The position numbers were made by a program, and so were the translations under genes. Source: a virus (lineage: Duplodnaviria > Caudoviricetes). From it: a DNA stretch of 50,465 nt. Shown here one piece after another: positions 1-50,465 of this stretch. Below the pieces are notes generated by a model, which did not search any database, was not told the origin of the DNA, and saw only the letters and a list, made by a program, of their open reading frames with translations. The stretch lies in the IMG/VR virus record IMGVR_UViG_3300024429_000003, positions 1 to 50,465 of that record; one strand, 5' to 3'. Numbering within the stretch: the stretch's first letter is position 1; each line of letters begins with the position of its first letter.

Positions 1-127
1 GGCTAAATAAATCTGTTGCTGTATCAATATCATCAAGTAATTTCCATAATTTAATTGTTTTTTCTTTCATATGCCTTTATTCCTTTCAGATAACGCAGAA
101 TTAACCGGATTGTGAGGGCTTTTCCGA
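1..127. repeat. Terminal overlap identical to 50339..50465 (circular contig)
   Basis: The first 127 nt match the last 127 nt exactly; 127 is a common assembler k-mer size. Confidence 0.97.
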
Positions 128-155
128 GCAATTCCGGTTAAATGACTTGTTATAC
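88..155 (-). repeat. attC-like site D (family 1, near-identical to 839..907)
   Basis: Minus strand: R'' GTATAAC, 5 nt, L'' ATTTAACC ... L' GGTTAAT, 5 nt, R' GTTATCT; imperfect hairpin with extrahelical bases. Confidence 0.88.
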
Positions 156-262
156 GGTTTCTTTTTTAAATTTTCTCTTATCTGATATCGGTAACAATTA
201 TATTTAATATTTTTTATTTTACAAATTTGCCGTAAACTACAATTAATAAAATCACATTTCAT
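101..262 (-). CDS. Small Cys/Lys-rich cassette ORF (MKCDFINCSLRQIC..., 53 aa; possible TTG start at 280), reads into attC D
   Basis: Translated by hand, below the ORF-track cutoff; lies between attC C and attC D. Confidence 0.5.
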   Translation of the reverse strand: MKCDFINCSLRQICKIKNIKYNCYRYQIRENLKKKPYNKSFNRNCSEKPSQSG

Positions 263-297
263 TGATACACCCCAAATCAAAATGCCTTATTCCTTTC

Positions 298-361
298 GCA
301 TAACGCTGCGATAACCTGCCTGAGCCTTTATGCGAAGGTCAGGTTTATTGGCTTGTTATAT
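298..361 (-). repeat. attC-like site C (family 2, near-identical to 606..669)
   Basis: Minus strand: ATATAAC-AAGCC-AATAAACC ... GGTTATC-GCAGC-GTTATGC. Confidence 0.88.
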
Positions 362-362
362 T

Positions 363-578
363 TTAATCATCTAATTGCATACAACATCCTAATTTTGTGG
401 TAGCCCCATCAGGCCTTGGCATCCTCGGAGTTGATTTTGGACGGTTGAATCTTTTTGCGCAGGCGGCAAGATGTTCAAGACCAAGAAAACAATGCCCATT
501 TTTTTCCTCAATAAAATCATCTTCCCCCCAAATATCCCAATTGTTACAATTACTATTAACACATTTTTTTCTTCTCAT
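363..578 (-). CDS. Cys-rich cassette protein (MRRKKCVNSNCNNW..., 71 aa)
   Basis: GGAGG RBS before ATG 578; the stop codon lies 1 nt from R'' of attC C. Confidence 0.65.
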   Translation of the reverse strand: MRRKKCVNSNCNNWDIWGEDDFIEEKNGHCFLGLEHLAACAKRFNRPKSTPRMPRPDGATTKLGCCMQLDD

Positions 579-605
579 TTTACCAACCTCCAATTATTAT
601 TTAAA

Positions 606-669
606 ATATAACGCTGCGATAACCTGCCTGAGCCTTTATGCGAAGGTCAGGTTGATTGGCTTGTTAGGG
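606..669 (-). repeat. attC-like site B (family 2)
   Basis: Minus strand: CCCTAAC-AAGCC-AATCAACC ... GGTTATC-GCAGC-GTTATAT; extrahelical C in L'' as in canonical attC. Confidence 0.9.
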
Positions 670-810
670 GGTGTGTCGGTTAAATACCAGGCTTTCCCAA
701 CACAAAGCTCTATGAGGCTGCATAAACCTGATCAGTTTATGCTTTCAACTATACATAATCCTAACCATTCGCTACCTGGGCACTTGGCCTACTTTGGCGT
801 ACAGTCCCCC
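667..810 (-). ncRNA. Candidate structured RNA in an ORF-less cassette
   Basis: GGGGG/CCCCC terminal stem, CCAGG/CCTGG stem and GCATAAAC/GTTTATGC hairpin; only a 6-codon ORF follows the RBS. Confidence 0.35.
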
Positions 811-838
811 TTATTATAATTTTTTTATTATCATTCTC

Positions 839-907
839 CCTTAACGATAGAATTAACCGGATTGTGAGGGCTTTTCCGAACAATTCCGGTTAAATGACTG
901 GTTAGCT
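839..907 (-). repeat. attC-like site A (family 1)
   Basis: Minus strand: AGCTAAC-CAGTC-ATTTAACC ... GGTTAAT-TCTATC-GTTAAGG. Confidence 0.88.
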
Positions 908-960
908 AATTTTTCCATAAGAAAATTAATGCAGTTAATTAGTTCATCAATTTTTACTTA

Positions 961-1623
961 TTAATTATCTCCGGAAATCTTTTTTGCTTCAAGTTTTTTG
1001 ATGACCGTAAAGACATCGCCGATAGTCCAGGCATAGCCGATGACCCTGCCGGCTGCCTCAGCTTCCCGGCCCCATTTTTTCTGCAGAGGAGAAGGGGTCC
1101 CTTTTGCAGATTTAAGCTCTACAGATCCGGCCGCGCCTTTCCAGCATAACAGCCAATCATGGATACCGGCACAACTGCAATATTGACCTTGCTCTTTCCT
1201 GGTTGCCTGAAGATCTTTACCGAAAAGAGGCCATAACTTTTTTACTTCTTTATTCAGGTCCTTTTCTAAACGATATTTTTTGTTAATGATTGATTCAAAT
1301 TTAGACAAGTCAATGCCAAAATTTTTTTTGAAATGGAGGAGAGTATCTTTTTCAGATAATGGTCTTATTTCATTACTTGTTATTTTCATAGATTCAGACA
1401 TTTGTGTGGAATTTTGCCATTTTGAATCCTGATTAAATGTTTTCATATCATACAACCAAGATTCAAATTCATTATCTCCCATAACATGCCGCATTGCATC
1501 TAATAAGCTATTGCCTACTTCATCCCGTTCTAAAGTTTTATCTTTAAGATAATATTTACAATAAACCCATTGGCAGGCTGCTAACAGCTTTCCGATAGTC
1601 CTATTTAAATTGTCAATTTTCAT
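961..1623 (-). CDS. VRR-NUC (PD-(D/E)XK) nuclease with an N-terminal extension
   Basis: C-terminal AGIHD...VELKSAKGTPSPLQKKW...GYAWTIGDV pattern typical of VRR-NUC. Confidence 0.75.
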   Translation of the reverse strand: MKIDNLNRTIGKLLAACQWVYCKYYLKDKTLERDEVGNSLLDAMRHVMGDNEFESWLYDMKTFNQDSKWQNSTQMSESMKITSNEIRPLSEKDTLLHFKKNFGIDLSKFESIINKKYRLEKDLNKEVKKLWPLFGKDLQATRKEQGQYCSCAGIHDWLLCWKGAAGSVELKSAKGTPSPLQKKWGREAEAAGRVIGYAWTIGDVFTVIKKLEAKKISGDN

Positions 1624-1647
1624 AATTTTTCATAAGTACGGATTTTT

Positions 1648-1950
1648 TCATAAGGCATCCTCACATATATATTCTTGTCTAAATTTTATTATAATATCCA
1701 TCTTAATCATTTTTACAACATCGCGATAAGTAACCAAATTTTTGTATCCATTTTTAGGGTCTTTTACGTATTTAATATTATTTTCTTTTATTATGAAAAA
1801 GAAAAATTCTTTTTTCATTTTATCGCCGACTATTCCCATATCTTCTTCTATTCGCCTATTTAAATCATTTTGGTTCCATTTTTTCCCATAATCATTCATT
1901 ATTTTTTCTGTTAGTCGTTCTTCTTCTTCCCAATTTATTTTATAGGCCAT
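1648..1950 (-). CDS. Hypothetical protein
   Basis: 100-aa ORF in the leftward operon. Confidence 0.6.
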   Translation of the reverse strand: MAYKINWEEEERLTEKIMNDYGKKWNQNDLNRRIEEDMGIVGDKMKKEFFFFIIKENNIKYVKDPKNGYKNLVTYRDVVKMIKMDIIIKFRQEYICEDAL

Positions 1951-1978
1951 TTTCTTTTTCTAAGGGTATATAGCTTTT

Positions 1979-2155
1979 CTACTCCCCGATTATATGAATT
2001 TTTAAAAGTTGTACCGTTAACGGTTGCCGAAGATATTCTTCCAGCAATTCAGTAACCAGACACGAATAGCTTTTTTTTGTGACCGTTGAAAGCACTTTTA
2101 ATTTCATATGTAGTTCCGGCGTCATAACCAGGCTTACTTTCCCTTTATACATCAT
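1979..2155 (-). CDS. Ribbon-helix-helix DNA-binding protein (HicB C-terminal/CopG-like), 58 aa
   Basis: Hand translation MMYKGKVSLVMTPELHMKLKVLS...KSYSCLVTELLEEYL. Confidence 0.7.
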   Translation of the reverse strand: MMYKGKVSLVMTPELHMKLKVLSTVTKKSYSCLVTELLEEYLRQPLTVQLLKIHIIGE

Positions 2156-2204
2156 AATATTATAATTCCCTTCATTGTCAGTGAACTTATGCCTCTGTTA
2201 AAAC

Positions 2205-2233
2205 TAATATCACTATATTCCCTGTTTTGTCAA
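2205..2233 (-). promoter_or_regulatory. Putative leftward sigma70 promoter for the RHH/VRR-NUC/cassette operon
   Basis: Perfect TTGACA at 2233..2228; weak -10 (GATATT). Confidence 0.4.
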
Positions 2234-2240
2234 GTTTAAT

Positions 2241-2269
2241 TTGCAAACTATTTTGATTAGTGGTATAAT
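2241..2269 (+). promoter_or_regulatory. Sigma70 promoter of the integrase
   Basis: TTGCAA-17 nt-TATAAT with extended TGn. Confidence 0.7.
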
Positions 2270-2297
2270 AACAATACCTCCGAGGTTTTAGCAAAAA

Positions 2298-3422
2298 ATG
2301 AAAATCAGAACTAAAGAAAAATGTCCTTTGTGCGGGGGGAGATTTGTCGATATAGGCTGGACCTTTATCTGCCCGAAAAGAGAATGCCTGACACATCCGA
2401 AATATTATTATATCGAGATATGCTGGAAGGGAAAACAATATCGATTATATTCTTCGAGTAGAGGAAAAGGATTTAAAACCTTCGATTCCGTAAAAGAAGA
2501 ATTTAAGCGAATAGAAGACAGGATTGCTGAAAGGTCCTTTGACCCGGAGGACTATCAAAAAAATAGAGAAATACACTTTTCCTTCGAGCATTATGCTGTT
2601 AAGTGGGTAGAGCAATGCCGGACAAAACTTGACCAAAATATTATTGCTCCTCTTACATACAAAGCATCGGAGAGATATACCCGCCTCTATTTTATTCCTC
2701 ATTTTAAAAAATCTGATATCAGAGATATTAATAACAGCGATATAACCGACTTCTGGCATGATCTTCCGGCTTCTCTGAAAATTAACACACAGAAGAATAT
2801 TCTCCGCTGGCTGCATACATTATTTTCCTACGCAAGACAACGGCAGGATATTTTTTATCTTCCGGTTTTTCCTAAAATAAAAGCTGAAGACAGCTTTATG
2901 CCTATATTAAACACAGAAACTATAAAAAAAATTTATAACCGGGTCAGACCGGCATACAAGCCTGTAATTCTATTCCTCTGGAAACAAGGCTGCCGACCGG
3001 CAGAGGCCAGATCTCTACAAATAGAGGATATTAATCAACATAATAAAACAATAACTATCAGACGATCATATTCAGGAAATGTTTATCGCGCGAAAACTAA
3101 AAATAAAAAAATCAGGATAATTCCTATCCATCCTTTAGTCTGGGAAACATTAAAAAAAATAACAAAAAAAGAAGGTTTCATCTTTCTGACTCCTCAAAAT
3201 AAACCAATCAGTCATTCCACTATTCGGCGTGTGTGGCTTAAGGCTGTTACAGCTTGTGATTTGCCTCATTGTCCCCCGTATACCCTCCGCCATAGTTTTT
3301 GCAGTCGGGCCATTAACGCCGGCGTATCAAAAAAACTCGTCATGGAATTTTTGGGGACTACTGTTTCCAATTATATCCATATCTCTCCTGTCGGCCTTCA
3401 GGCATGTCTTGAAGAAGATTAA
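2298..3422 (+). CDS. int: Phage tyrosine integrase with an N-terminal CxxC and arm-binding-like region
   Basis: GCRPAEA (R), KTKNKK (K), YTLRHS (box II), C-terminal Tyr; followed by an excisionase. Confidence 0.92.
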   Translation: MKIRTKEKCPLCGGRFVDIGWTFICPKRECLTHPKYYYIEICWKGKQYRLYSSSRGKGFKTFDSVKEEFKRIEDRIAERSFDPEDYQKNREIHFSFEHYAVKWVEQCRTKLDQNIIAPLTYKASERYTRLYFIPHFKKSDIRDINNSDITDFWHDLPASLKINTQKNILRWLHTLFSYARQRQDIFYLPVFPKIKAEDSFMPILNTETIKKIYNRVRPAYKPVILFLWKQGCRPAEARSLQIEDINQHNKTITIRRSYSGNVYRAKTKNKKIRIIPIHPLVWETLKKITKKEGFIFLTPQNKPISHSTIRRVWLKAVTACDLPHCPPYTLRHSFCSRAINAGVSKKLVMEFLGTTVSNYIHISPVGLQACLEED

Positions 3423-17359: not shown

Positions 17360-17418
17360 TTATTCCCGCCTTTCGGCTGTTATTGGTTATCATTCATCCT
17401 TCCCGCCTTGGTTATTGG

Positions 17419-17712
17419 TTAATTAGGAAAAAGTATTTCAAGAACAGCTAAATATACTTTTTCTGTATTAAGCCGCATTTTGTATGACCACCAGAAGATC
17501 TCAACACTTTTCACTACATCCTTTTCTATTTCCTGGAGTGTAGAAAAAGTGTTGATTATTTTTTCATTTTTATTGACAGCGATAGCAGGATTATTTCCAA
17601 CAACAATATCTCTTGCTATTCTTTTTGCTATTCTTTTTTCCTCTTTTTTAATAATTTCCTTATTAGTTATTTCCTCTTTTTCTGAAAATCCTATTAATTT
17701 TTCCATCCTCAA
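17419..17712 (-). CDS. Small hypothetical protein
   Basis: Preceded by the repeat. Confidence 0.65.
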   Translation of the reverse strand: MRMEKLIGFSEKEEITNKEIIKKEEKRIAKRIARDIVVGNNPAIAVNKNEKIINTFSTLQEIEKDVVKSVEIFWWSYKMRLNTEKVYLAVLEILFPN

Positions 17713-17752
17713 AATCTCCTCTTGCGGCGGAATCGCTCCCGCTGGTTAGCTG

Positions 17753-18112
17753 TTAATTATTTTTCTTTATATAATCCAATTCTTCTCTCACAAAATTATT
17801 CATCTCTTTTTCAAGAGTGCCTCTTTCCGGGAACTCTTCATCCGTTTCCACCGCTATCCATTTATCATCGAATGAATTTATGTTATCCACACACACAGAA
17901 AACATAATTCTGGTAGTTTTTAAAGCCGTAAAAATTTTTTTTATATTCAAGGCCCGGATTAATTTCGGACGATTTTCTTTGGGTATCGTCCAAAGAAGAT
18001 CTAGGTTTACAATAAAAACTATACAGGCGTCAACGCCTTGATAATAGTCCCTAACAACCTGTGCTCGATCAACGGCGAGCCCTATCTTGTGTTGTTCGTC
18101 TACGCATCTCAT
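17753..18112 (-). CDS. Hypothetical protein
   Basis: Preceded by the repeat. Confidence 0.65.
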   Translation of the reverse strand: MRCVDEQHKIGLAVDRAQVVRDYYQGVDACIVFIVNLDLLWTIPKENRPKLIRALNIKKIFTALKTTRIMFSVCVDNINSFDDKWIAVETDEEFPERGTLEKEMNNFVREELDYIKKNN

Positions 18113-18190
18113 CTCTCAAATCTCCTCTTGCGGCGAGATCGCTCCCGCCTTGCGTTTCCCCGTCCAGCCGATAGGTCAGCTATTGATGGG

Positions 18191-18424
18191 TTATACTCTT
18201 TTCCCGTTAAGATAACGAAAAACATTATCTTTTCCACCAAGATTGAAGGATTTTTCCCTTCCAACCTCCAGAATATAATATTCCCCTTGAGTATAATATT
18301 GATCTGATTCAATGGCATGTCGAAAAACGTATACTCTTGCTCCGGTTTTTTTTAGCTTCTCGGTTGCTGATTGTCGCCTTGCTTTGTCCATTGCGTTTTT
18401 TCTGATCATTCCCTGCATTGGCAT
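18191..18424 (-). CDS. Hypothetical protein
   Basis: Preceded by the repeat. Confidence 0.6.
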   Translation of the reverse strand: MPMQGMIRKNAMDKARRQSATEKLKKTGARVYVFRHAIESDQYYTQGEYYILEVGREKSFNLGGKDNVFRYLNGKRV

Positions 18425-18461
18425 AATTCATTATTCCTTCCCACCTTGCGGCTGTTATTGG

Positions 18462-18677
18462 TTATCTTACAGTGATACCATGACTCTGCGCATAATCCAC
18501 AGCTTCATAATATCGATTGAATTTTTTCGGCGTTATTTCACATCCGTTAATATCACATAATATCCGAGGTAACGGACCTACATAAGTATATTGTCCATCG
18601 TATCCTCTAATTACTTGAGGGGTATCCCAAAGGACTTTTGGCTCTTCGTTCTGAACTTCATCATTTTTTATAAGCAT
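18462..18677 (-). CDS. Hypothetical protein
   Basis: Overlaps the upstream gene; stop codon is part of the TAACCAATAAC repeat. Confidence 0.6.
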   Translation of the reverse strand: MLIKNDEVQNEEPKVLWDTPQVIRGYDGQYTYVGPLPRILCDINGCEITPKKFNRYYEAVDYAQSHGITVR

Positions 18678-18987
18678 GATATTCTCCCCAGTAATAATGA
18701 TTAATTGTGTCTAGTGTGCCATAATAATGTCCTCTATGGATTACACCATAAGCCTTAATTCCCCATATTTGCCCATCCGCATCAACCATATATTTCCCTG
18801 ATGTTCCCACATCTACTTTTACGTATTTCTTGCCTGGTTTGATCTTTACTTTGCATTCCTCAATATTGCCTTGGCAATTCCATCCTGCACGCTTTAGTCT
18901 GTCTAATTGATCATTTTCCAATACCGTGGCAAAATTTTGAAGTTTGCCCGCTAACCGCTCAAATATTTTCAATACGTCCTTAATCAT
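18661..18987 (-). CDS. Phage hypothetical protein (KKYVKVD...GKYMV...GIKAYG)
   Basis: GGAGG RBS before ATG 18987; first gene after the sigma54 promoter. Confidence 0.7.
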   Translation of the reverse strand: MIKDVLKIFERLAGKLQNFATVLENDQLDRLKRAGWNCQGNIEECKVKIKPGKKYVKVDVGTSGKYMVDADGQIWGIKAYGVIHRGHYYGTLDTINHYYWGEYHAYKK

Positions 18988-19042
18988 TACATTACCTCCA
19001 ATACGGTTAATGTTATGTTGCCAAATTACATTATTATCTAAT

Positions 19043-19058
19043 AGCAAGTTATATGCCA
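19043..19058 (-). promoter_or_regulatory. Sigma54 (RpoN) -24/-12 promoter
   Basis: TGGCATATAACTTGCT versus consensus TGGCAC-N5-TTGCW; IHF-like TAACAACCACTTA at 19068..19080. Confidence 0.75.
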
Positions 19059-19289
19059 TATCAATAATAACAACCACTTAGCATATCCGATGCGGAGCTA
19101 GGTCTGGGTTTTTGTAACGGAATTGAGACGTCTTATATATATAAGGATTAGAAAACCTAGGCTTATGAACTGGTCGAATGCAATTTAGTCGTGGTTATTT
19201 ACGCAATTATCAATAATGAAATTACAGGTCTCTATGGACGCTGTTTGTGAGACTTATGGATAATTATCGTAAGGTTATGGATATTTTAC

Positions 19290-24898: not shown

Positions 24899-25197
24899 CC
24901 AAACCCCAAAAACATAGCGCCTTACCATACAAGAAGCATAGCAAGCGCTGGAAGCGGAAGAGAGAGGCTTATTTGTGGGCACAAAGCAGGACAGAATATT
25001 TAACTTATGAGTTTATAGAAACTACGACTAAAAAAATAAGAAAGAAGGTTTTTCGTGATAAAGGTTTTCAAATATGCAGGAAAGTATTGGCCGTAGTAAA
25101 TTTTGCAAGACAGTTAGTAATGTATCAACAAGGGTCAAGAGTAAGGGAATTAGAGGTTTTTTGTAATTGGAAAGGTTTTCAGGGGATAATTGTATGA
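24895..25197 (+). CDS. Basic hypothetical protein
   Basis: ATGA overlap. Confidence 0.6.
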   Translation: MTKPQKHSALPYKKHSKRWKRKREAYLWAQSRTEYLTYEFIETTTKKIRKKVFRDKGFQICRKVLAVVNFARQLVMYQQGSRVRELEVFCNWKGFQGIIV

Positions 25198-25427
25198 AAG
25201 AAGGCTGGATATGTCCAAGATGTAAGACGATACATGCGCCGTATATAGATAAATGTGATTGTTCGGCTGATTTGCCTATAGTTGAGGAAATAAAAATAAA
25301 ACCAAGTGTGCCACCACACCTGCCTTATATATGGCCAAATGAAATGGAAAGATATAGGATAATGCCTACACCTACACCTAAACCATATTATCCATCAGGT
25401 ATCCATCAGGTATGGGACCTTTTTTGA
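25194..25427 (+). CDS. Small protein with GWICPRC...C-D-C motif
   Basis: MKEGWICPRCKTIHAP; ATGA overlap. Confidence 0.65.
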   Translation: MKEGWICPRCKTIHAPYIDKCDCSADLPIVEEIKIKPSVPPHLPYIWPNEMERYRIMPTPTPKPYYPSGIHQVWDLF

Positions 25428-25455
25428 TATACGGAACAGGAGGACAGTATTTTAC

Positions 25456-25881
25456 ATGATTCCCTTATACTACACAAAGCTGCACAAATATAAATATAAG
25501 CTGGCTAAGCCATTCAAGTATAATACCGGCATAAAAGGCCGTAGAGCTACAACAGAATATATATTGCTGTTCCCTGACGGTGAGTTGACCATAAAAATTG
25601 GTTATAGGTGGGATGGGCCTAGTGGCCCCACTCCCGATACAAAAACGTTCATGCGAGGAGCATTAATTCATGATGCGTTGTATCAGCTAATCAGAATGTA
25701 TATATTACCTGTATCGTTCAGGAAAATATCAGACAGATTATTAAGGAGGGTATGTATACAAGATGGCATGAATAAAATAAGAGCATGGTGGGTGTATAAC
25801 GCTGTGAGGTTGGCAGGTAAGGGATCTGCCGAACCCGGTACACAGAAACCGGATAAAATTTATTGTATAGGAAAGGAATGA
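25456..25881 (+). CDS. DUF1353-like protein
   Basis: GYRWDGPS...GALIHDALYQ...DRLL...WVYNAVR. Confidence 0.8.
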   Translation: MIPLYYTKLHKYKYKLAKPFKYNTGIKGRRATTEYILLFPDGELTIKIGYRWDGPSGPTPDTKTFMRGALIHDALYQLIRMYILPVSFRKISDRLLRRVCIQDGMNKIRAWWVYNAVRLAGKGSAEPGTQKPDKIYCIGKE

Positions 25882-25882
25882 A

Positions 25883-26155
25883 ATGCAAGATCAGTGTGCG
25901 CCACCAAAAAACTTGTATGAAATAGAAAGAGAGGTAGATCAATTAAAAGGGAATATTGAACAAATGGTCGGTATGAGTGAGACGTTACGAGACAAGCTAT
26001 CTGTTGTTTTGCGATCTGACCCACTAGAACCTTCTGCGGATAAACTTTCCACGAATACTTGTACCCCTCTGGGAGCTAAACTCAGGACTTTAGCAAATCA
26101 GGTAAATAATATAACGGATATACAAGCGGATATATTAAACAGATTAGAACTTTAA
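25883..26155 (+). CDS. Hypothetical coiled-coil protein
   Basis: AGGA RBS; ends with RLEL. Confidence 0.65.
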   Translation: MQDQCAPPKNLYEIEREVDQLKGNIEQMVGMSETLRDKLSVVLRSDPLEPSADKLSTNTCTPLGAKLRTLANQVNNITDIQADILNRLEL

Positions 26156-26192
26156 AAGAATAACCATCATATAAGAAAGGATAATAAAAACA

Positions 26193-26951
26193 ATGAATAG
26201 CAATCTAAAAGCGTTAACCAAAGGCTTTATCATCACATTAACCGTATTTTTTACAGTGTGTGTATTATTGGTTTGTATGACCTACGCTCAAACCAAGGGT
26301 GTCATAGACTTTATGGTGCAGAAAGCATCTGAAACGGGTATTGAAGATTTAAGTGTTGATGCTGACTTCCAGGTGCATCGGGAAAATATAAAGATAGAAT
26401 TGGATTTTGAATTAAATAAGGTGCAGACAGCCGAGAAGCTTGACAAACTGGACGTTTATACCGGGATTCAATACAATATTCTATTAAGTAAGCAGGTATA
26501 TACTTATGCGGCTATGAAATATAAAACCAATACCGGCTATGAAATAAGGAGTTCTACTTCCTTCGGAATGGGTGGCGGGTATTTTCCTGGGTTACAAGAT
26601 CCAAACCAAGAGGATTTTTTAGACTATAATATTCAGGCCGGACTTTTTTTAAATACAAAATATTTTGATGATAATACCTATGAGCGCAATACCATTCTGA
26701 ATTTATCCGGAGGGATTATTTACCCGATCAATGATATTTTTTCAGCATACGGTGAGGCGGAGATCGACTTTAATATGAGAAGGGCTTTTTATGACTATGA
26801 GAGTATAGTTGATGCAGGTGTAAAGGCGAAATTAACTGAGGGTGAGAAAGTATCCTCAAACCTAAAGATATGTAACGTATGGCGGCATAATCATTTAGCT
26901 GATATAGAAGACCAGAAGGTTTACGGGATAAAGATAGGGCTTGAGTTTTGA
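26193..26951 (+). CDS. Outer-membrane beta-barrel protein (DUF481-like) with signal peptide
   Basis: Hydrophobic signal ending TYA, alternating amphipathic strands, C-terminal GIKIGLEF beta-signal. Confidence 0.72.
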   Translation: MNSNLKALTKGFIITLTVFFTVCVLLVCMTYAQTKGVIDFMVQKASETGIEDLSVDADFQVHRENIKIELDFELNKVQTAEKLDKLDVYTGIQYNILLSKQVYTYAAMKYKTNTGYEIRSSTSFGMGGGYFPGLQDPNQEDFLDYNIQAGLFLNTKYFDDNTYERNTILNLSGGIIYPINDIFSAYGEAEIDFNMRRAFYDYESIVDAGVKAKLTEGEKVSSNLKICNVWRHNHLADIEDQKVYGIKIGLEF

Positions 26952-27133
26952 AATATACCAATACATCAGGTAAACCATTATCGGTGGAGGTCCTGGAAAA
27001 GGCCTATAACGGTCTTAAAGTAATGAGCAAGAATGGCGGGAAGTTACAATTAGAACCACAGGTAAAGATAAAACTGTCTGAGTATATTTTTCTTAATAAA
27101 GCGCAACAAAGATTTTATGAAAGTATGATATGA
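26948..27133 (+). CDS. Hypothetical protein
   Basis: Coupled ORF. Confidence 0.45.
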   Translation: MKYTNTSGKPLSVEVLEKAYNGLKVMSKNGGKLQLEPQVKIKLSEYIFLNKAQQRFYESMI

Positions 27134-27393
27134 AAGCTCATCTTCGGGCATGTTCGGCTTGTGGAAGCACAGAGTTTTACGACGGTAAGACTGAAATACA
27201 GTATTTAAAGATTAAGGGAAAGCTTGTAAATGGCTTTACTCATAAAATAAGTTACATGTTAAGGTGTGCTGTATGTGGGCGTCCTTGTATGGAAGATAAT
27301 GATTTTATCGAAAGTAAAAAAACAATGGAATTAACCGAAGATGAGACAAAAGCTATGAGAGACATTAACAGCCGGGCCAATGCGGAGTTCTAG
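27130..27393 (+). CDS. Zn-ribbon protein
   Basis: CSACG...CAVCG. Confidence 0.65.
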   Translation: MKAHLRACSACGSTEFYDGKTEIQYLKIKGKLVNGFTHKISYMLRCAVCGRPCMEDNDFIESKKTMELTEDETKAMRDINSRANAEF

Positions 27394-49763: not shown

Positions 49764-49939
49764 ATGCCGGCAATGTGTGAATGGGGAGTAAAGGCCAATG
49801 AATCTATAGAAAGGGAGCTTGAAGATATGAAAGTCTGGATTAATAAAATTGAAGAAAGACTATATGTGCTGTAGTGAGATCTTTGGTCTTTATAATTTTG
49901 CAATTCATCACCATAGGGTTAGTGATGTTAAGAAATAAC
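49764..49939 (+). pseudogene. Possible frameshifted holin/XhlA-like small membrane gene
   Basis: Coiled-coil ORF ...KIEERLYVL* continues in the -1 frame as VRSLVFIILQFITIGLVML and runs into attC E. Confidence 0.3.
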
Positions 49940-49995
49940 GAATACATCAGGGGCGCACAGCTCTATCGTGCGTCCCTTGAATGCGCTGGTTATAT
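49933..49995 (-). repeat. attC-like site E (third sequence type)
   Basis: Minus strand: ATATAAC-CAGCG-CATTCAAGGGACGCAC...GTGCGCCCCTGATG-TATTC-GTTATTT. Confidence 0.85.
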
Positions 49996-50217
49996 TTTAA
50001 ATAGTGTCAATTGTCTCTCAGACACCGATTTCTCTTTAATTTTTTTAATGCCTAATTGTACTCTGATTTCATCACACCAAATTTTGTACGGGTGCATTGC
50101 CCTTTCGCCGTAGGGATATGCCTGTCGTAGTTTTTTACGTAGATTTTTTATATCAGATGTGCCAACTATAGATATAATCTCTGCGATTATAGGTCTTACC
50201 TGATCACGCCTAGTCAT
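49990..50217 (-). CDS. Cassette protein (AYPYGERAMHPYKIWCDEI motif)
   Basis: The TAA stop lies inside R'' of attC E. Confidence 0.75.
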   Translation of the reverse strand: MTRRDQVRPIIAEIISIVGTSDIKNLRKKLRQAYPYGERAMHPYKIWCDEIRVQLGIKKIKEKSVSERQLTLFKI

Positions 50218-50408
50218 ATTTTCTCTTTAGTTTCCGGATCAAATAAATTATACCCATCCGAAATAAATATTTTATGCCGTTCCTGCTGTTTTTTGGTTAC
50301 ATATTTATAATATGCTTCATAAGATTTTAAATCGTGGAGGCTAAATAAATCTGTTGCTGTATCAATATCATCAAGTAATTTCCATAATTTAATTGTTTTT
50401 TCTTTCAT
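50214..50408 (-). CDS. Cassette protein (LWKLLDDIDTA.D motif)
   Basis: AAGG RBS just after R' of attC D; ATGA overlap with the next ORF. Confidence 0.75.
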   Translation of the reverse strand: MKEKTIKLWKLLDDIDTATDLFSLHDLKSYEAYYKYVTKKQQERHKIFISDGYNLFDPETKEKI

Positions 50409-50465
50409 ATGCCTTTATTCCTTTCAGATAACGCAGAATTAACCGGATTGTGAGGGCTTTTCCGA
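50339..50465. repeat. Terminal overlap identical to 1..127
   Basis: Exact match. Confidence 0.97.

Follow-up and report, generated by a model that had tools for sequence, protein, structure and literature searches.

Integron cassettes have been described in phage genomes. A screen of 10,705 phage genomes yielded three complete integrons, one In0 and 17 CALINs, according to the accessible part of that report (Qi et al., 2023, Front Microbiol; PMC9892861), and five of the six attC sites tested there, which came from virulent phages, recombined with IntI1. In the literature searched, this was the only paper we found with attC arrays of phages as its main subject. Cassettes can also be inserted at secondary genome sites (attG, 5′-GWT-3′), giving rise to SALINs and small CALINs, as set out in the consulted portion of a preprint (Loot et al., bioRxiv 10.1101/2022.09.11.507474). 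The window analysed here, i.e., the whole stretch of 50,465 bp, is an entire IMG/VR virus record, and it contains a clear new example of a phage cassette row, an element of an already known kind; the 17 phage CALINs may include similar cases, as far as the accessible part of their description goes (PMC9892861). Five attC-like sites are located within 2.9 kb across the circular junction of this genome, and no IntI is encoded in its 50 kb. The element is very probably a CALIN (an attC cluster without integron integrase) built by an IntI acting in trans.

The first and last 127 bp of the window are identical, and hence the assembly is circular, with a length of about 50,338 bp. As this terminal repeat joins the window ends, sites E and A of the row, which stand at opposite ends of the record, are neighbours. 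PHROGs matches in the genome include a large terminase, a portal/adaptor protein, two helicases and a primase. Nearly all genes are encoded on the plus strand, from 2298 to 49762; the cassette row lies inside a short minus-strand block that extends from 49990 through the circular junction to 2155. Three minus-strand phage genes (961–2155) stand between the array and the integrase gene: ORF220 (961–1623), with an endonuclease-like C-terminus, ORF100 (1648–1950) and ORF58 (1979–2155), an Arc-like repressor. The PHROGs matches of this group are phrog_93 (1.3e-9) and phrog_3180 (0.0026). A second small minus-strand block is present at 17400–19100 (ORFs 17753–18112 and 18661–19077), with reversed GC skew, in a genome that is otherwise plus-strand. 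In the contigs of one public run, which may be the source sample and is therefore not independent evidence, depth is 42.7–52.3 for the unique cassette pieces and 43.4 for a 43.7-kb backbone piece, and this equal depth argues weakly against an assembly chimera. Neither an alternative cassette order nor circles were found in the contigs of that run; contigs drop rare variants, so this result has no bearing on excision. Searches for relatives of the phage, via its integrase in viral and metagenome contigs or via its 1487-aa protein, gave pattern matches, none of which was confirmed by tblastn.

The sites of the row, all of them on the minus strand, are A (88–155; TAAC to GTTA, 91–152), B (298–361; 301–358), C (606–669; 609–666), D (839–907; 842–904), which is the one nearest to the genes on the integrase side, and the attC-like site E (49933–49995; TAAC to GTTA, 49936–49992) at the far end of the array. 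Site E, the fifth one, located at the other end of the window, was not part of the sequence-only reading of this DNA from which we started. Three attC sequence types occur in the row: A/D (type 1; A is 96% identical to D over 56 nt), B/C (type 2; B is 98% identical to C), and E, which has the structure in common with the others. All five sites have TAAC...GTTA ends, 57–63 nt apart, and measure 63–69 nt from core to core. The attC core consensus is RYYYAAC/GTTRRRY; the cores of A–E comply with this textbook form only loosely, their constant part being TAAC/GTTA. In site E, the top (minus) strand reads R″ = ATATAAC and R′ = GTTATTT. The cassette ORFs are also encoded on the minus strand, and the sites are therefore co-oriented with them.

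Three window sites were aligned with six sites of another viral contig, L006. In all nine, two columns (16 and 23) of the 5′ arm of the top strand are unpaired, and the folds of sites A and D show one extra base on this same arm. When the window sites are folded, the unpaired bases fall on the 3′ arm of the plus strand, from which it follows that the plus strand would recombine, as the bottom strand, with the minus strand serving as top (coding) strand; we equate these bases with the G and the T that are canonical for a bottom strand. Among the nine sites, 11 of the 15 inner-stem pairs have changed on both sides. About 82–85.9% of the inner-stem cells are paired, against 25–40% when the partner is slid by 1–3 columns, and the covariation score was reached by none of 500 shuffles. 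Window positions 1–2400 gave no terminator-like hit, and no T-run follows sites A–D. In Rfam, no family reached its gathering score and the hits at E ≤ 5 were noise; no tRNA was detected. On the absence of terminator-like hits, the attC architecture and the inner-stem covariation, the earlier argument that the repeats are not terminators or REP elements holds: they are neither intrinsic terminators nor REP-like dispersed repeats. Judging from their sequences, we consider it very likely that the five repeats are genuine integron attC sites, and IntI is predicted to recombine A–E.

attC sites were detected with two covariance models made in this analysis, which stand in for the curated IntegronFinder/HattCI models. 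R1 was built from the nine aligned sites, E being part of the training set; R2 was built from the six L006 sites only and is independent of the window. R1 scored two sites that were not in its training set, A (35.7 bits, E 1.2e-6) and D (18.9 bits, E 0.048), as well as site E, which was included in it (59.4 bits). In the 50-kb window, R1 returned nothing beyond the five sites at E ≤ 1, all hits being on the minus strand; further copies of the repeats were thus not found elsewhere in the genome with this model, and the sites are confined to a 2.9-kb stretch. R2 finds three of the five window sites at E < 0.05, namely C (36.8 bits, E 1.6e-6), B (30.8 bits, E 4.8e-5) and A (19.4 bits, E 0.029); site E was scored at noise level (9.5 bits, E 7.1), and D was not listed at E ≤ 10. 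Taking into account that R2 leaves E in the noise and omits D, both sites rest on their architecture, and D also on its 96% identity to A. Site E is the least certain of the five.

A 20-nt arm of sites B/C is present in nine bacterial contigs, four of them from Desulfobacterota. At least four of these nine contigs contain full attC-like hairpins, and several have further sites nearby. IntI was detected above the NCBI curated cut-off in all five tested genomes with the B/C arm, and in none of 14 control genomes; the identical arm was found in IntI-encoding genomes of Desulfobacterota, Hydrogenovibrio and Acidobacteriota. Patterns for the A/D type, either exact or stem-only, gave no match in viral contigs or metagenome contigs, and sequence searches found neither a host nor an IntI-bearing relative of types A/D or E. 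Upon blasting window positions 1–960, a single 41-nt hit of chance level was obtained with isolate phages and nothing with plasmids. Against 401 genomes from the phylum of genome G004, short hits were obtained in six (E 8e-5 to 5e-4), one of them over site B, with no host signal. A 218-nt contig from the same public run (depth 2.2) contains part of an A/D-type site (window 91–123) with two differences and unrelated flanks; it may come from a different genome of that community, one with a related attC.

It is a feature of integron biology that attC sites within an array are hybrids. In our comparison of the cores, the left box of each site was reverse-complemented and compared with the right box of its left-hand neighbour. 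The limits previously proposed for three cassettes (94–303, 304–611 and 612–844) coincide exactly with the G|TT crossover points when the minus strand is taken as top. For cassette 304–611, C matches B at 7/7 core positions, and the start of the cassette was again seen to match the R″ side of site B, in inverted form, at 12/12 positions (GTTATATTTTAA). For cassette 94–303, B matches A at 6/7 positions, and the 7/8 match reported earlier, GTTATGCG against GTTATACG, was obtained again. Cassette 612–844 (D against C, 6/7) had been credited with an 8/9 match; its start is GTTAAGGGA, not GTTAAGGGG, and the true count for the 9-mer is 7/9. A matches E at 6/7 positions. Within sites, the cores match at 5/7 positions in A and B and at 4/7 in C and D, in agreement with the 4–5 of 7 given for A–D, and at 6/7 in E.

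The main claim of the sequence-only reading was that each R′ fits the R″ of the neighbouring site better than that of its own site. This is confirmed at the variable positions 5–7, with 9/12 matches for the cassette pairing against 2/12 for own-site pairing (5/12 with the opposite neighbour). Over the seven core positions, the pairing of cassette A→E (6/7), which that reading did not list, is no better than that of site E's own cores (6/7). A score of 9/12 is the best over the 120 possible right-box assignments and is reached by four of them, the observed one and three ties; with only four cassettes, the window alone gives a p value no better than about 0.03, and the statistics are thin. Comparing the folding of rebuilt circular cassettes, a check proposed along with that claim, supports it. 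As bottom-strand DNA, the rebuilt circular attC sites fold with a total of −47.7 kcal/mol, against −39.4 kcal/mol for the same bodies in the array, and 6 of the 120 assignments are at least as stable. C→B (−14.2 vs. −10.5) and D→C (−11.2 vs. −7.8) account for the gain; A→E shows none, and B→A gains through an alternative fold only. Altogether, the pairing signal is clear in two of the four cassettes (304–611 and 612–844), and that of 94–303 is marginal.

Two further similarities were noticed among the cassette starts. That of cassette 304–611 (window 597–612) and the R″ side of site E (49989–50003) are complementary at 15 of 15 positions, which exceeds the 12/12 match of this cassette to its own site B; this hints that the start of cassette 304–611 and the end of E were once together in an earlier arrangement. 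Cassettes A→E and B→A resemble each other at their starts (window 77–106 and 287–316), with 80% identity over 30 nt, a stretch consisting of an R′ remnant and the ribosome-binding region (TTATTCCTTTC..ATAAC), which suggests that both cassettes are of common origin.

All four cassettes are in minus-strand orientation. A→E (493 nt) spans 49939–50431, i.e., 49939–50338 plus 1–93, read through the terminal-repeat copy, and includes ORF64 (50214–50408) and ORF75 (49990–50217), which overlap by ATGA. B→A (210 nt; 94–303) includes a 53-aa ORF (101–262) that runs into attC A, and C→B (308 nt; 304–611) a Cys-rich ORF of 71 or 76 aa (363–578/593). No minus-strand ORF of at least 20 aa is present inside D→C (233 nt; 612–844). 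This ORF-less cassette is bounded by GGGGG..CCCCC; it shows no unusual RNA fold (z −1.43 and −1.49, both strands analysed) and no Rfam match. Searches of Pfam, PHROGs and NCBIfam gave no match for the four cassette ORFs (53, 71/76, 64 and 75 aa), and among 5.8 billion proteins no relative of the 76-aa protein was found beyond itself.

ORF75 has 18 homologue clusters, with 43–59% identity in the alignment and a conserved core (AYPYGERAMHPYKIWCDE). Its relatives are encoded in 15 viral loci; in none of these is there an attC within 3 kb of the relative or a hairpin after its stop codon. In five of the 15 (L032–L035 and L044), the relative is encoded immediately downstream of an integrase, a tyrosine recombinase that is a distant relative of Int374, the integrase of the window phage. 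The family may be a lysogeny-module factor, e.g., an excision helper. The stop codon of ORF75 itself is inside the R″ of site E. As the family occurs without attC in 15/15 loci, the A→E unit may be native phage DNA, not an imported cassette. Either ORF75 is a phage-lineage gene turned cassette, or the unit is native phage DNA that came to be flanked by attC sites; the core pairing, 6/7 either way, does not discriminate between them.

Rows of this kind are found in other viral sequences as well. A second, unrelated phage has six co-oriented attC sites and seven small ORFs, one of them a DUF7352 protein (L006:9745–11941, corresponding to about 25071–27267 of G001). This 47-kb, myovirus-like phage (100% complete by CheckV estimate) has genes for sheath, portal, terminase and major head protein, and no tyrosine recombinase was found in it. 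Its cores match at 15/20 positions across sites and at 8/20 within sites, and 2 of 720 assignments reach 15/20. The first cassette of its row starts at G|TTAGGC, matching its own R″ at 7/7 positions, directly after non-attC phage sequence. A small palindrome (ATGCTG..CAGCAT) stands right before this start.

A survey of viral arrays with one narrow geometry pattern for this attC subfamily matched 56 viral-contig stretches. In 55 new viral loci (L049–L103), R1 detected 112 attC-like sites at E ≤ 0.01: 29 loci have two to seven sites, always co-oriented, 18 have one and eight have none. The likely duplicates L092, L097 and L099 were left out of the pair test, which drew on 26 loci with 61 neighbour pairs; the spacing is 1500 nt or less in 57 of the pairs. 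In these 57 pairs, cross-site matching amounts to 202/228 (44 perfect pairs) and own-site matching to 104/228, and none of 2000 shuffles reached the observed value. This signal shows the logic of the earlier reader to be sound, and the attribution of the pattern to cassette recombination at G|TT is supported by its recurrence in these 26 loci. The window fits the general picture of viral arrays, with more mismatches than most. The large terminase phrog_2 is encoded on the same contig in four of ten array-bearing records checked; some records of the survey may be proviruses with host flanks, or misclassified. No homologue of the cassette proteins of the window was found in the 55 loci, and no IntI-like gene in the DNA fetched around them.

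The only tyrosine recombinase (PF00589) gene of the window genome lies on the plus strand at 2298–3422. It encodes a 374-aa protein, Int374, an ordinary phage integrase (phrog_1 at 2.2e-44; PF00589, 73 bits). On TIGR02249 it scores 43 bits, against a cut-off of 265, and no IntI was found in the genome. Int374 is 20–22% identical to three IntI proteins, without a segment of about 40 residues common to them, and is, by its sequence, not an IntI. Its N-terminus has a Cys-rich, zinc-ribbon-like stretch (window 2298–2400; CPLCGG ... CPKREC), which is unusual for phage integrases of this size. Promoter-like consensus hits occur on the minus strand at 2233–2206 and 2181–2154. As regards an attI, no junction matching the R″ of site D was found in 908–2400: the best 7-mer, GTTAGCA (1590–1584), is inside ORF220 and at chance level, and only chance-level candidates exist in that interval for the start junction of the cassette that owns site D. 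Given that there is no IntI here, no tyrosine recombinase in the L006 phage and no IntI-like gene in the 55 loci, the economical explanation is an IntI acting in trans, as we infer.

The row could then have been formed as follows. Each attC would fold as a single-stranded hairpin, with the plus strand of the window as the recombining bottom strand. An IntI, presumably supplied in trans by the bacterial host, would cut between G and TT of the R′ core, where the circular cassette would open; its TTxxxx end would go to the upstream junction, and the rest of its attC would stay downstream. A site within the array would in this manner be a hybrid of two cassettes, giving the pairing observed. At least cassettes 304–611 and 612–844 would have been joined by separate G|TT exchanges, and the cassettes would be read from a promoter on the ORF58 side. 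The sequence comparisons support an IntI-type G|TT exchange that joined the cassettes at some time in the past, be it within the phage or within a donor array.

Two other accounts concern the nature of the repeats and of the enzyme. The repeats could be non-recombining intergenic hairpins, terminators or REP-like, spread by duplication and pairing by chance in AT-rich sequence. The near-identical pairs A/D and B/C look as if derived from duplication, four of 120 pairings reach the observed score, and a weak terminator-like sub-hairpin is found inside E on the plus strand; but the 2400 positions searched include no terminator-like site and no T-run after A–D, and sites of unrelated genomes likewise have AAC/GTT ends, bases left unpaired on one arm and covariation in the stem. 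Besides, the independent model R2 detects three of the five sites, an identical arm exists in IntI-encoding bacteria, and the sites occupy one 2.9-kb stretch of a 50-kb genome, all of which makes this account extremely improbable. Very improbable, too, is that the phage integrase at 2298–3422 runs an integron-like platform and itself recombines the hairpin sites. The layout does resemble an integron, with a recombinase divergent from the cassette row and promoter-like sites in between, and Int374 is the sole recombinase of the genome. Against this stand its 43 bits on an IntI model with a cut-off of 265 and its 20–22% identity to three IntI proteins, the shared segment of about 40 residues being absent; ORF58, ORF100 and ORF220 are interposed between its gene and the first attC; and the L006 phage, with its array of six sites, is without any tyrosine recombinase. 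In the fetched DNA of the 55 viral loci, which includes no IntI-like gene, a weak Int374 match appears in one of 55; relatives of Int374 with which its association with arrays could be assessed were searched for, and none was found.

A different question is where the row was built. In temperate phages, as established for lambda, attP lies near the integrase region, and hence so does mis-excised host DNA. The array of the window occupies such a position, with the plus-strand gene block ending on one side of it and the integrase region on the other, and it might have been built in a bacterial chromosomal integron and captured by the phage as one block, e.g., by aberrant prophage excision or illegitimate recombination near the attachment site. 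The pairing pattern would survive block transfer unchanged, a search of the D side (908–2400) gave no start junction of the IntI type, and Vibrio anguillarum prophages with pieces of the host chromosomal integron are published, according to the accessible part of the report (PMC9892861). Block capture is nevertheless confronted with three unlike attC types (A/D, B/C and E) in a five-site row, chromosomal integron arrays tending toward homogeneity as the same source states in its accessible part (PMC9892861). The ORF75 family is found in viral contigs, the first L006 cassette begins at a precise G|TTAGGC after phage sequence, which points to insertion into phage DNA, and searches gave no bacterial copy of the window's cassettes. 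We hold block capture to be possible though unlikely, and the same degree of belief applies to its corollary that the hybrid cores record recombination in the donor and not in the phage. The three attC types, the viral lineage of ORF75, the first junction of L006 and the published GWT route are in favour of insertion into phage DNA.

Insertion into phage DNA, extended to phages in general, would mean that phage genomes are regular substrates of host IntI, cassettes being inserted singly at GWT or attC sites and phage-lineage genes travelling as cassettes. We put this forward as a speculative and quite unlikely generalization, for which ORF75, bounded by attC here and an ordinary attC-less gene in 15/15 other viral loci, provides a lead. 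Should it be true, integron recombination would be a route of gene exchange among phages, and the locus would be a phage gene caught turning into a cassette. As it stands, the window provides a fully assembled example of mobile integron cassettes in a temperate phage without integron integrase, with junction sequences that constitute internal evidence for the building of the row by an IntI-type enzyme. A by-product of the analysis weighs more: attC rows, of up to seven sites each, occur in 29 of 55 further viral loci, and the published screen, with 17 CALINs in 10,705 isolate phage genomes in its accessible part, may understate cassette carriage by phages (PMC9892861). This is relevant to the movement of cassettes between bacteria and to the question of whether the cassette pool serves phages as a source of accessory genes of their own. 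Two points deserve following up: the case of ORF75 and the recurrence of such rows in further viral contigs.

Compared with known systems, the row resembles the arrays of sedentary chromosomal integrons in its ORF-plus-attC units, their co-orientation, the hybrid R boxes, the presence of ORF-less cassettes and the mostly orphan cargo; it differs from them in its small number of cassettes (four), its mixture of attC types and its phage carrier, and neither an IntI nor a recognisable attI accompanies it. The Vibrio anguillarum prophages are likewise temperate and have integron parts close to their ends, as described in the accessible part of the report (PMC9892861). According to that same part, they carry the IntIA of their host together with attC sites of Vibrio type, a subset of those in the host array (PMC9892861), whereas the window phage is without IntI and a matching host array was not found. 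The attG route, as far as the consulted portion of the preprint describes it (10.1101/2022.09.11.507474), was shown in the E. coli chromosome and not in phage DNA, and on the near (D) side of the present row no junction was found; yet it could let a host IntI place a first cassette in phage DNA without attI, and both the far junction of site E (G|TTATTT) and the first junction of L006 (G|TTAGGC) fit GWT. The published phage CALINs, in the accessible part of their description (PMC9892861), likewise consist of attC sites lined up in one orientation, accompanied by small ORFs without assigned function, in phages that encode no IntI. With respect to what is set out there, the present case, known from sequence only, is an uncultivated temperate phage from a metagenome, assembled as a circle, with five sites of three types, in which the record of G|TT exchange left in the hybrid cores is made explicit.
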